This document shows positions 1 to 799 of a DNA stretch of 799 nt, in pieces; within the stretch, counting starts at the first letter, position 1; every line of letters starts with the position of its first letter. A program made the translations under genes and the position numbers. This DNA is from Escherichia coli (lineage in GTDB: Bacteria; Pseudomonadota; Gammaproteobacteria; Enterobacterales; Enterobacteriaceae): assembly GCF_003334815.1 (NCBI RefSeq), contig NZ_QOWO01000118.1. The stretch is one strand, 5' to 3'. The notes below the pieces were generated by a model, which was not told the DNA's origin, searched no databases, and saw only the letters and a list, made by a program, of their open reading frames with translations.

Positions 1-799
1 TAGTTTCTGTCCATGGCTGCTTTTCGCATCTTACGTCTTAACCCTGCCTTGAATACCTTATCATTCGTCAAAATATTAATAGCAATGTGCCGTATCCCTG
101 AAAATAATTCTGCTGCATTTCCTCTTCTTATTTTGCAGTCGTCTTCATTCATTACCACGTCCAGACGCCAGTGCAGCTTATTCTCCACGTGCCAGTGGTT
201 TCGGATTGCTGTGGCGAACTTCTCTGCGGTTAAATCAGCAGAACTGATATAATATCTGACCGTCATTTCTAGCTCTTTCTTTTGTTCTGCTATTATGGAC
301 CGAAAGGAGACTGCCACGCATAATTTCTTCAGCCCTTTCCATTCAAACGTGAAATCAATAAGTTCATCAGGGACATCGCAAACAATATGAAGACGGATTT
401 CTTCTCTGCCGTGACTCTTTTCACTCATTGCGTAACTGTCATGCTCTGGATTATTTAATTCTTTCAGCGGAAATTTTTCCTCAAAGGCTTTATTTAGCCG
501 CCCCTGGTTTCCTTTTACCGCGAATAAATAATCACCTCCCTGTTTTTGTATCTTCTCTGCAATATCTTTCTGGCAACCCATCGCATCAGTTGTGATGATT
601 TTTCCTTTAATATCCAGCATGTTAAGAAGTTCTGGGATAGCTGTAATCTCATTAGATTTCTCATCCGTCTTGATCTGTCCGATGACCAGACTGTGCATTG
701 TTGAGAACGCACTAATGACATGAATCGCTCCCCTGCGGCGACTCTTGTCATAAGAGTGCCGGAGCGTTTTTCCATCAATTGCAATGACGTCTTTATCAT
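1..799 (-). CDS. ISAs1-family DDE transposase (H-repeat-associated protein, ISEc1-like); internal fragment, truncated by the window at both ends
   Basis: Seen in sequence: reverse-complement frame with codons at + coords 797..3 translates to 265 aa with no stop: [265 protein letters not shown]. Chance of 265 stop-free codons in random sequence is roughly (61/64)^265, about 3e-6. Established knowledge: the motifs [25 protein letters not shown] and [20 protein letters not shown] are characteristic of ISAs1-family transposases, including the E. coli H-repeat proteins (YhhI/YdcC/YbfD/YbfL type). This recognition is from memory, not a database search. Full-length family members are about 370-380 aa, so roughly 100 aa of N-terminus lie beyond position 799 and a short C-terminal tail lies beyond position 1. 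No gene symbol given because the near-identical paralogs cannot be told apart from this fragment. Confidence 0.93.
1..799 (-). mobile_element. Internal portion of an ISAs1-family insertion sequence (H-repeat / ISEc1-like); no element termini inside the window
   Basis: The window is entirely occupied by the transposase gene of this IS family. Established knowledge: these elements are about 1.2-1.3 kb with a single transposase ORF filling most of the element, so the inverted-repeat ends would lie outside this window. None were looked for or seen inside it. Confidence 0.85.

Follow-up and report, generated by a model that had tools for sequence, protein, structure and literature searches.

A predicted DDE triad in an ISEc1/ISEc5 transposase fragment of Escherichia coli, very probably part of an old resident element

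A 799-nucleotide stretch of Escherichia coli DNA (hereafter, the window) was analyzed for the identity, catalytic residues and mobility of the transposase gene that it carries. We conclude that the window very probably represents the DDE transposase core of ISEc1/ISEc5, an element whose E. coli copies appear to be old residents, passed on vertically, and not recent insertions. The element is already known as a named, pipeline-annotated family member that has long been described in E. coli Rhs loci. An intact catalytic triad is the default condition of ISEc1, and is not a sign of current activity.

Identity of the window and its element

Translation of the window reveals 265 stop-free codons on the minus strand, in the frame read from base 797, while the remaining two minus-strand frames contain many stops. 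When the window was shuffled 2000 times by mononucleotide, the longest stop-free run across all frames had a mean of 85 codons and a maximum of 196. Since the shuffles never rose above 196 codons, the 265-codon frame is not a product of chance. A 79-aa ORF starting with ATG on the plus strand (13-252) was taken as chance, as were the other short ORFs in the window, all of them antisense to the strongly conserved transposase gene.

Judged from its sequence, the window is the catalytic part of an ISEc1/ISEc5 (H-repeat, H-rpt) transposase gene of the ISAs1 family. It presents an internal fragment of that gene (1..799, minus strand), comprising codons 102-366 of 378 with a partial codon at each end; the gene start, the stop and both element ends all lie beyond the window. 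The NCBIfam model NF033564 (ISAs1 family transposase; curated cut-off 70) scores 308.8 bits and aligns over profile positions 75-314 of 314. The Pfam catalytic domain DDE_Tnp_1 (PF01609) spans 72..794 on the minus strand (window residues 2-242) with E = 4.6e-31 and an alignment to model positions 4-200 of 200. PF01609 occupies residues 102-343 of the nearest full-length match, and PF13808 (DDE_Tnp_1_assoc) its residues 8-94, where the PF13808 region corresponds to sequence upstream of the window.

Of 5426 complete E. coli genomes searched with the window by megablast, 5342 hold a match. The median genome has 5 such places, and the places number roughly 22,900 in total; at least 80% of the window is covered at one place in 4943 genomes. 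Every match listed is a gene annotated as an ISEc1 or ISEc5 family transposase, some carrying the names yhhI or ydcC, and nucleotide identity to genes annotated ISAs1-like element ISEc1 / ISEc5 family transposase is 99.6-99.9%. The best match (L001) is 99.9% identical, with 1 mismatch in 799, and places the window at 6001-6799 within a CDS at 5964-7100 that is a complete ORF of 378 aa. Contigs that encode a protein identical to that of locus L004 differ from the window at 1-5 nt. The window protein itself is identical to the ydcC-locus protein of strain S30 across 265 residues (102-366), and, at 90% identity, 38,559 sequences fall into a single 378-aa cluster. ISEc1/ISEc5 of E. coli (genes yhhI, ydcC, ybfD and ybfL) combines a 378-aa ORF, a length of 1291 bp and CAGGG ends, and is Rhs-adjacent in the nearest matches to the window.

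The window differs from ISEc1/ISEc5 by one nucleotide, and codon 277 (270-272, minus strand) is its sole difference from the best database match. This codon reads CTA (Leu) in the window, a form not seen in the copies compared, and CCA (Pro), CTC or CTT (Leu) elsewhere in an alignment with four E. coli copies. None of the 5426 complete genomes matches the window at 100%, and a 40-mer spanning the variant codon has no exact occurrence in 100,044 species-representative genomes. In all, four forms of codon 277 (CTA, CTT, CTC and CCA) occur in copies with no more than 3 other nucleotide differences across the 799. The site maps to a loop of the beta insertion domain described below, within the lowest-confidence core block of the predicted structure (pLDDT 88).

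Catalytic triad and predicted fold

A search of 1.84 billion cluster representatives returned 30,382 relatives, and conservation was assessed in a set of 124 sequences consisting of 123 full-length representatives at 35-55% identity together with the E. coli protein. Inspection of this set reveals three acidic residues with almost no variation, numbered here as in the full-length protein. The first, D109 (window residue 8; 774..776, minus strand), lies in the motif IAIDGKT on beta-strand 1 (predicted 105-113) and is D in 123 of 124 representatives and E in the remaining one. The second, D172 (window residue 71; 585..587, minus strand), lies in the motif TTDAMGCQ directly after beta-strand 4 (predicted 168-171) and is again D in 123/124, with E in the single exception. 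The glutamate, E306 (window residue 205; 183..185, minus strand), lies in the motif HWHVEN(K) on the long helix that follows the insertion domain (predicted 292-316) and is E in every one of the 124. D109, D172 and E306 are assigned as the catalytic triad on the strength of this invariance across the family and of a confident model with a Tn5-like fold. Likewise invariant in the 124 family members are N150-E151, K196, N198, R232 and R236.

These results agree with what an earlier note on this DNA had read from the letters. It had described an ISAs1-family transposase core, which the NF033564 and PF01609 scores bear out, and a frame crossing that core free of frameshifts and stops, which the 265 open codons confirm. 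The aspartates that it placed at 774-776 (GAT) and 585-587 (GAT) and the glutamate at 183-185 (GAG) are indeed minus-strand codons of this frame, and its spacing of D-62 aa-D-133 aa-E corresponds to frame residues 8, 71 and 205. That these residues are the catalytic positions of the family also held, given their near-invariance in the 124 representatives and their DDE-like placement in an RNase H-like transposase.

An AlphaFold2 model was built on the family alignment (mean pLDDT 95.6, pTM 0.92). The order of predicted elements is a strand at 105-113 (with D109), strands at 126-133 and 138-145, a helix at 148-161, a strand at 168-171 (followed by D172), a helix at 178-186, a strand at 190-195, helices and four long strands within 221-286, and a helix at 292-316 (with E306). 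Residues 221-286 (243..440, minus strand) form the predicted beta-strand insertion domain, positioned between strand 5 and the catalytic helix as in the Tn5 transposase. According to this model, the transposase is an RNase H-fold DDE enzyme with a beta-strand insertion domain, built like the Tn5 transposase.

The Tn5 (IS50) transposase (PDB 1MUH, 1MM8 and 4DM0) was taken for comparison, with its sequence confirmed against PDB chains; D97, D188, E326, Y319, R322 and K333 are invariant in a 66-sequence Tn5/IS50 alignment. A phmmer search of the protein against the PDB returned only a chance match to CheY, and an HMM of the 124 family members found no PDB chain with E below 0.7. Alignment of the ISAs1 profile to the 66-sequence Tn5/IS50 profile with hhalign yielded a probability of 0.3% and left the catalytic motifs unaligned, and hhalign restricted to the catalytic cores, in both local and global modes, likewise gave no significant match. 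Short-segment hhalign weakly paired HWHVE (E306) with RWRIE (E326) of Tn5 at E = 0.047 and, also weakly, placed D109 within one residue of Tn5 D97. We infer the exact residue equivalence of the ISEc1 triad to D97/D188/E326 of Tn5. The coordinates of PF01609 were considered as a bridge between the two proteins and rejected, since the Pfam alignment of Tn5 begins at residue 125, past D97, and cannot map the first aspartate.

The two enzymes also differ in several respects. They share only 9-11% identity, their D-D spacing is 62 residues in the ISEc1 transposase versus 90 in Tn5, their N-terminal domains belong to PF13808 and PF14706, respectively, and the dimerisation domain of Tn5 is missing from the ISEc1 transposase. 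The IS4 family carries the signature Y-(2)-R-(3)-E-(6)-K around its catalytic glutamate (PMC2266710). This YREK pattern is absent around E306, where the signature sites hold I299, H302 (for R, at -4) and L313 (for K, at +7) and no Y, R or K. Membership in the IS4 family (Tn5/IS50, IS10, IS231) was rejected on account of the missing signature, despite the Tn5-like fold.

Within the catalytic helix, the H-W-x-x-acidic motif is doubled (window 159-197, residues 302-314), with H302/W303/E306 followed by H310/W311/D314. Of these residues, H302, W303, E306, H310 and D314 are invariant in 124/124, and position 311 is occupied by W in 119 sequences and by Y in the other 5. The third catalytic residue could in principle be D314, eight residues past E306, as in a DDD-like family, or E306 and D314 could both act, a proposal that we find barely plausible. 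D314 shares the full invariance of E306, and each is preceded by H-W at -4/-3, as R322-W323 precede E326 in Tn5. However, D314 sits two residues before the end of the predicted helix 292-316, whereas E306 is found mid-helix like Tn5 E326. In addition, the sole alignment obtained sets HWHVE opposite RWRIE, and the 13 residues from E306 to E319 equal the 13 from E326 to E339 in Tn5, with the downstream conserved acidic residue in register. E306 is retained here as the probable third member of the triad. The eukaryotic piggyBac and piggyBat transposases, which employ a DDD triad and TTAA targets, have no sequence similarity to the ISEc1 transposase.

Element ends and genomic surroundings

The element boundaries were located by comparing the copies at three chromosomal loci: nfrB-cusS, where the neighbor is a truncated PAAR/Rhs gene; rhsB-yhhJ; and ydcC. 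Homology among these copies begins exactly at CAGGGAAAGATCAT... and stops exactly at ...AATCTTGCCCTG, which gives an element of 1291 bp. Elements of the ISAs1 family are about 1.2-1.5 kb long and contain a single ORF. In the nearest matches, the ends form imperfect terminal inverted repeats, CAGGGAAAGATCATGTAACGCC / CAGGGCAAGATTACGAAAGCCC, with 16/22 complementary positions when compared by eye; a generic inverted-repeat finder did not report these terminal repeats, which were found by eye and by locus comparison. In the nearest match, a strong Shine-Dalgarno sequence, AAGGAG, lies upstream of the ATG. The nearest matches adjoin rhsB, rhsD/E-type and PAAR/Vgr genes.

Several features of the ends and flanks were observed along the way. 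Nucleotides 14-25 of the left end (L001 7219-7231; also L002, L004 and L005) come in two versions, one GTAACGCCGGT-like and the other CAAAAGTTCAC-like. Conservation is seen in the first 13-14 nt of the end and again from nt 26 on. Many megablast matches begin at nt 26 because of these two versions. In strain F5505-C1, the left end of the H-repeat is interrupted at nt 25/26 by an IS1. At several loci, a decayed second ISAs1-family copy, 67% identical, frameshifted and with internal stops, stands beside the intact one. The regions of IS1 or decayed copies are L003 4219-4975 and 4969-6008, L004 4204-5330, and L006 6685-7276.

Two loci combine flanks that are otherwise separate. On a metagenome scaffold (L029, 1-5207), a RhsB-type left flank (DUF4329, Imm-NTF2-2) is joined across one H-repeat to the right flank of the ydcC locus, with the genes pptA, flavin reductase and nhoA. 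Similarly, comparison of L016 with L013/L014 shows the left flank of one Serratia copy together with the right flank of a copy 19 kb away. These junctions look like homologous recombination between copies, or like assembly chimeras. A further ydcC-locus copy, L005 3001-4291, was deposited as a plasmid (CP054253.1) and lies between ansP and flavin reductase, with neither Rhs nor pptA alongside. Its right junction is unlike that of other ydcC-locus copies, which suggests deletions next to the element end. The CP054253.1 'plasmid' is chromosomal DNA.

Mobility in relatives and residence in E. coli

Among relatives of the window element, insertion duplicates 10 bp of the target. The Salmonella relative has 87% amino-acid and 78% nucleotide identity to the E. 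coli element, and an identical protein is encoded at several Salmonella loci, both by a PAAR-Rhs gene and inside polysaccharide gene clusters. Perfect 10-bp duplications flank two Salmonella insertions (ATATCTCCTG and CGGTGCCTGC) and a Serratia relative (GTTTTACAGA); the relatives with fresh duplications stand at 78% and 73% nucleotide identity. In the Salmonella loci L010/L011 (1311-1355), at least six copies of the heptamer AGTGCTC abut the left end of the element in an O-antigen-type cluster, and the insertion beside this run has no target duplication.

The founder of the family, ISAS1 of Aeromonas salmonicida, transposes into vapA and abcA with the creation of direct repeats and is reported to leave a copy at the donor (PMC3661141). 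At the level of family models and domains, ISEc1 has the NF033564 model and the PF13808/PF01609 pair in common with ISAS1 and its family. ISAS1 has been seen to transpose, whereas H-rpt transposition in E. coli has not been observed, according to the E. coli W genome paper (PMC3032704), and the E. coli copies examined here are without duplications.

On the proposed mechanism, the N-terminal domain would bind the CAGGG-type element ends, and D109, D172 and E306 would hold two divalent metal ions. This two-metal site would then cut the element ends (CAGGG...CCCTG), a chemistry that we infer, and the 3' ends would be joined to target phosphates 10 bp apart to produce 10-bp duplications such as those of the relatives. 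The route may be cut-and-paste via hairpins as in Tn5, or one in which the donor copy is retained, as reported for ISAS1.

Inspection of E. coli ISEc1 copies for target-site duplications or flanking direct repeats found them in 0 of 7 copies, which represent about 4 distinct loci. A target-site duplication of about 8-10 bp goes with ISAs1-family elements. The clade thus shows this feature, and the E. coli copies examined have lost it or had it erased. The exact YhhI protein maps to the RhsB-yhhJ locus in 10/10 sampled places. Copies encoding this identical protein carry up to 13 synonymous changes, versus 0-10 differences in the neighbor gene yhhJ, a comparison that is biased by the choice of copies for their identical protein. 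Divergence of this kind would be expected of an old copy passed on by vertical inheritance. Plasmid copies were considered as a sign of mobility and rejected; of 72,556 plasmid records just 25 have a match, 21 of the 25 are typed non-mobilizable, and those inspected are mostly chromosomal or Rhs DNA. Two non-mobilizable records hold chromosomal (ansP-nhoA) or Rhs DNA, several others are chromosome-sized, and one IncX4-typed record carries one copy with no clear duplication. The literature on ISEc1, yhhI and ydcC yielded genome-survey mentions only, with no functional study found. Taken from sequence, the E. coli copies resemble long-standing residents inherited vertically more than they do recent insertions.

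Selection on the gene was estimated by dN/dS. The E. coli gene compared with its Salmonella counterpart gives about 0.04. The more diverged of the E. coli copies give 0.05-0.07 when set against each other, with 23-26 synonymous changes to 5-7 non-synonymous ones. By these ratios, the ISEc1 transposase gene is under strong purifying selection. Copies at different Rhs loci are 98.5-99% identical.

Each of these last two observations also speaks for a reading that we regard as unlikely, in which the window copy is an autonomous insertion sequence active at present, with a working transposase by which ISEc1 still moves in E. coli. Its ORF is intact in the window, the nearest matches are full-length with both ends and a strong Shine-Dalgarno sequence before the ATG, relatives at 78% and 73% nucleotide identity bear fresh 10-bp duplications, and the family founder transposes. 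Against current activity stand the absence of duplications from all seven E. coli copies, the restriction of the exact YhhI allele to a single locus in 10 sampled places, a synonymous divergence of that allele similar to that of the neighboring host gene, the near absence of the element from genuine plasmids, and the lack of observed transposition in the literature. High identity between Rhs loci, moreover, can also be produced by gene conversion.

The same evidence bears on the expectations of the earlier note. It had held an intact core to be worth remarking upon, yet a cluster of 38,559 members and the 4943 genomes with at least 80% of the window covered mark this as the ordinary state. Its suggestion of a potentially active copy is not upheld for E. 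coli, given the 0/7 duplications, the fixed locus and the published account (PMC3032704). As to the full element, which it proposed to recover, both ends and the 378-aa ORF are present in the nearest copies, and no duplication lies beside any of the seven copies examined.

The E. coli H-repeat transposase may alternatively be an immobilized gene kept by selection for a host or Rhs role, for example in the exchange of Rhs C-terminal tips, which we consider highly unlikely. Every E. coli locus examined, except L005 beside ansP, holds the element in a fixed position by Rhs or PAAR toxin genes, and the missing duplications and the excess of synonymous over non-synonymous changes among E. coli copies also accord with such a role. 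An identical protein is, in addition, retained across up to 13 synonymous changes, but that comparison carries the bias of copies chosen for identity. Both terminal inverted repeats are intact, which is unusual for a domesticated gene, and the Salmonella and Serratia members of the clade are plainly mobile and are found in O-antigen clusters without Rhs as well. Ordinary low-frequency transposition with old insertions is a simpler explanation than a host role for the same facts, and the reading of the E. coli copies as old residents is the one preferred here.

The finding of the ISEc1 triad is in itself of little importance, an intact DDE core being the usual state of the element. Of mild interest is why such strong conservation beside Rhs toxin genes is kept up in a transposase for which no movement has ever been observed. 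Were selection for a host role to prove true, the H-repeat transposase would no longer be selfish; it would be a stationary gene that serves the Rhs toxin system or the host.
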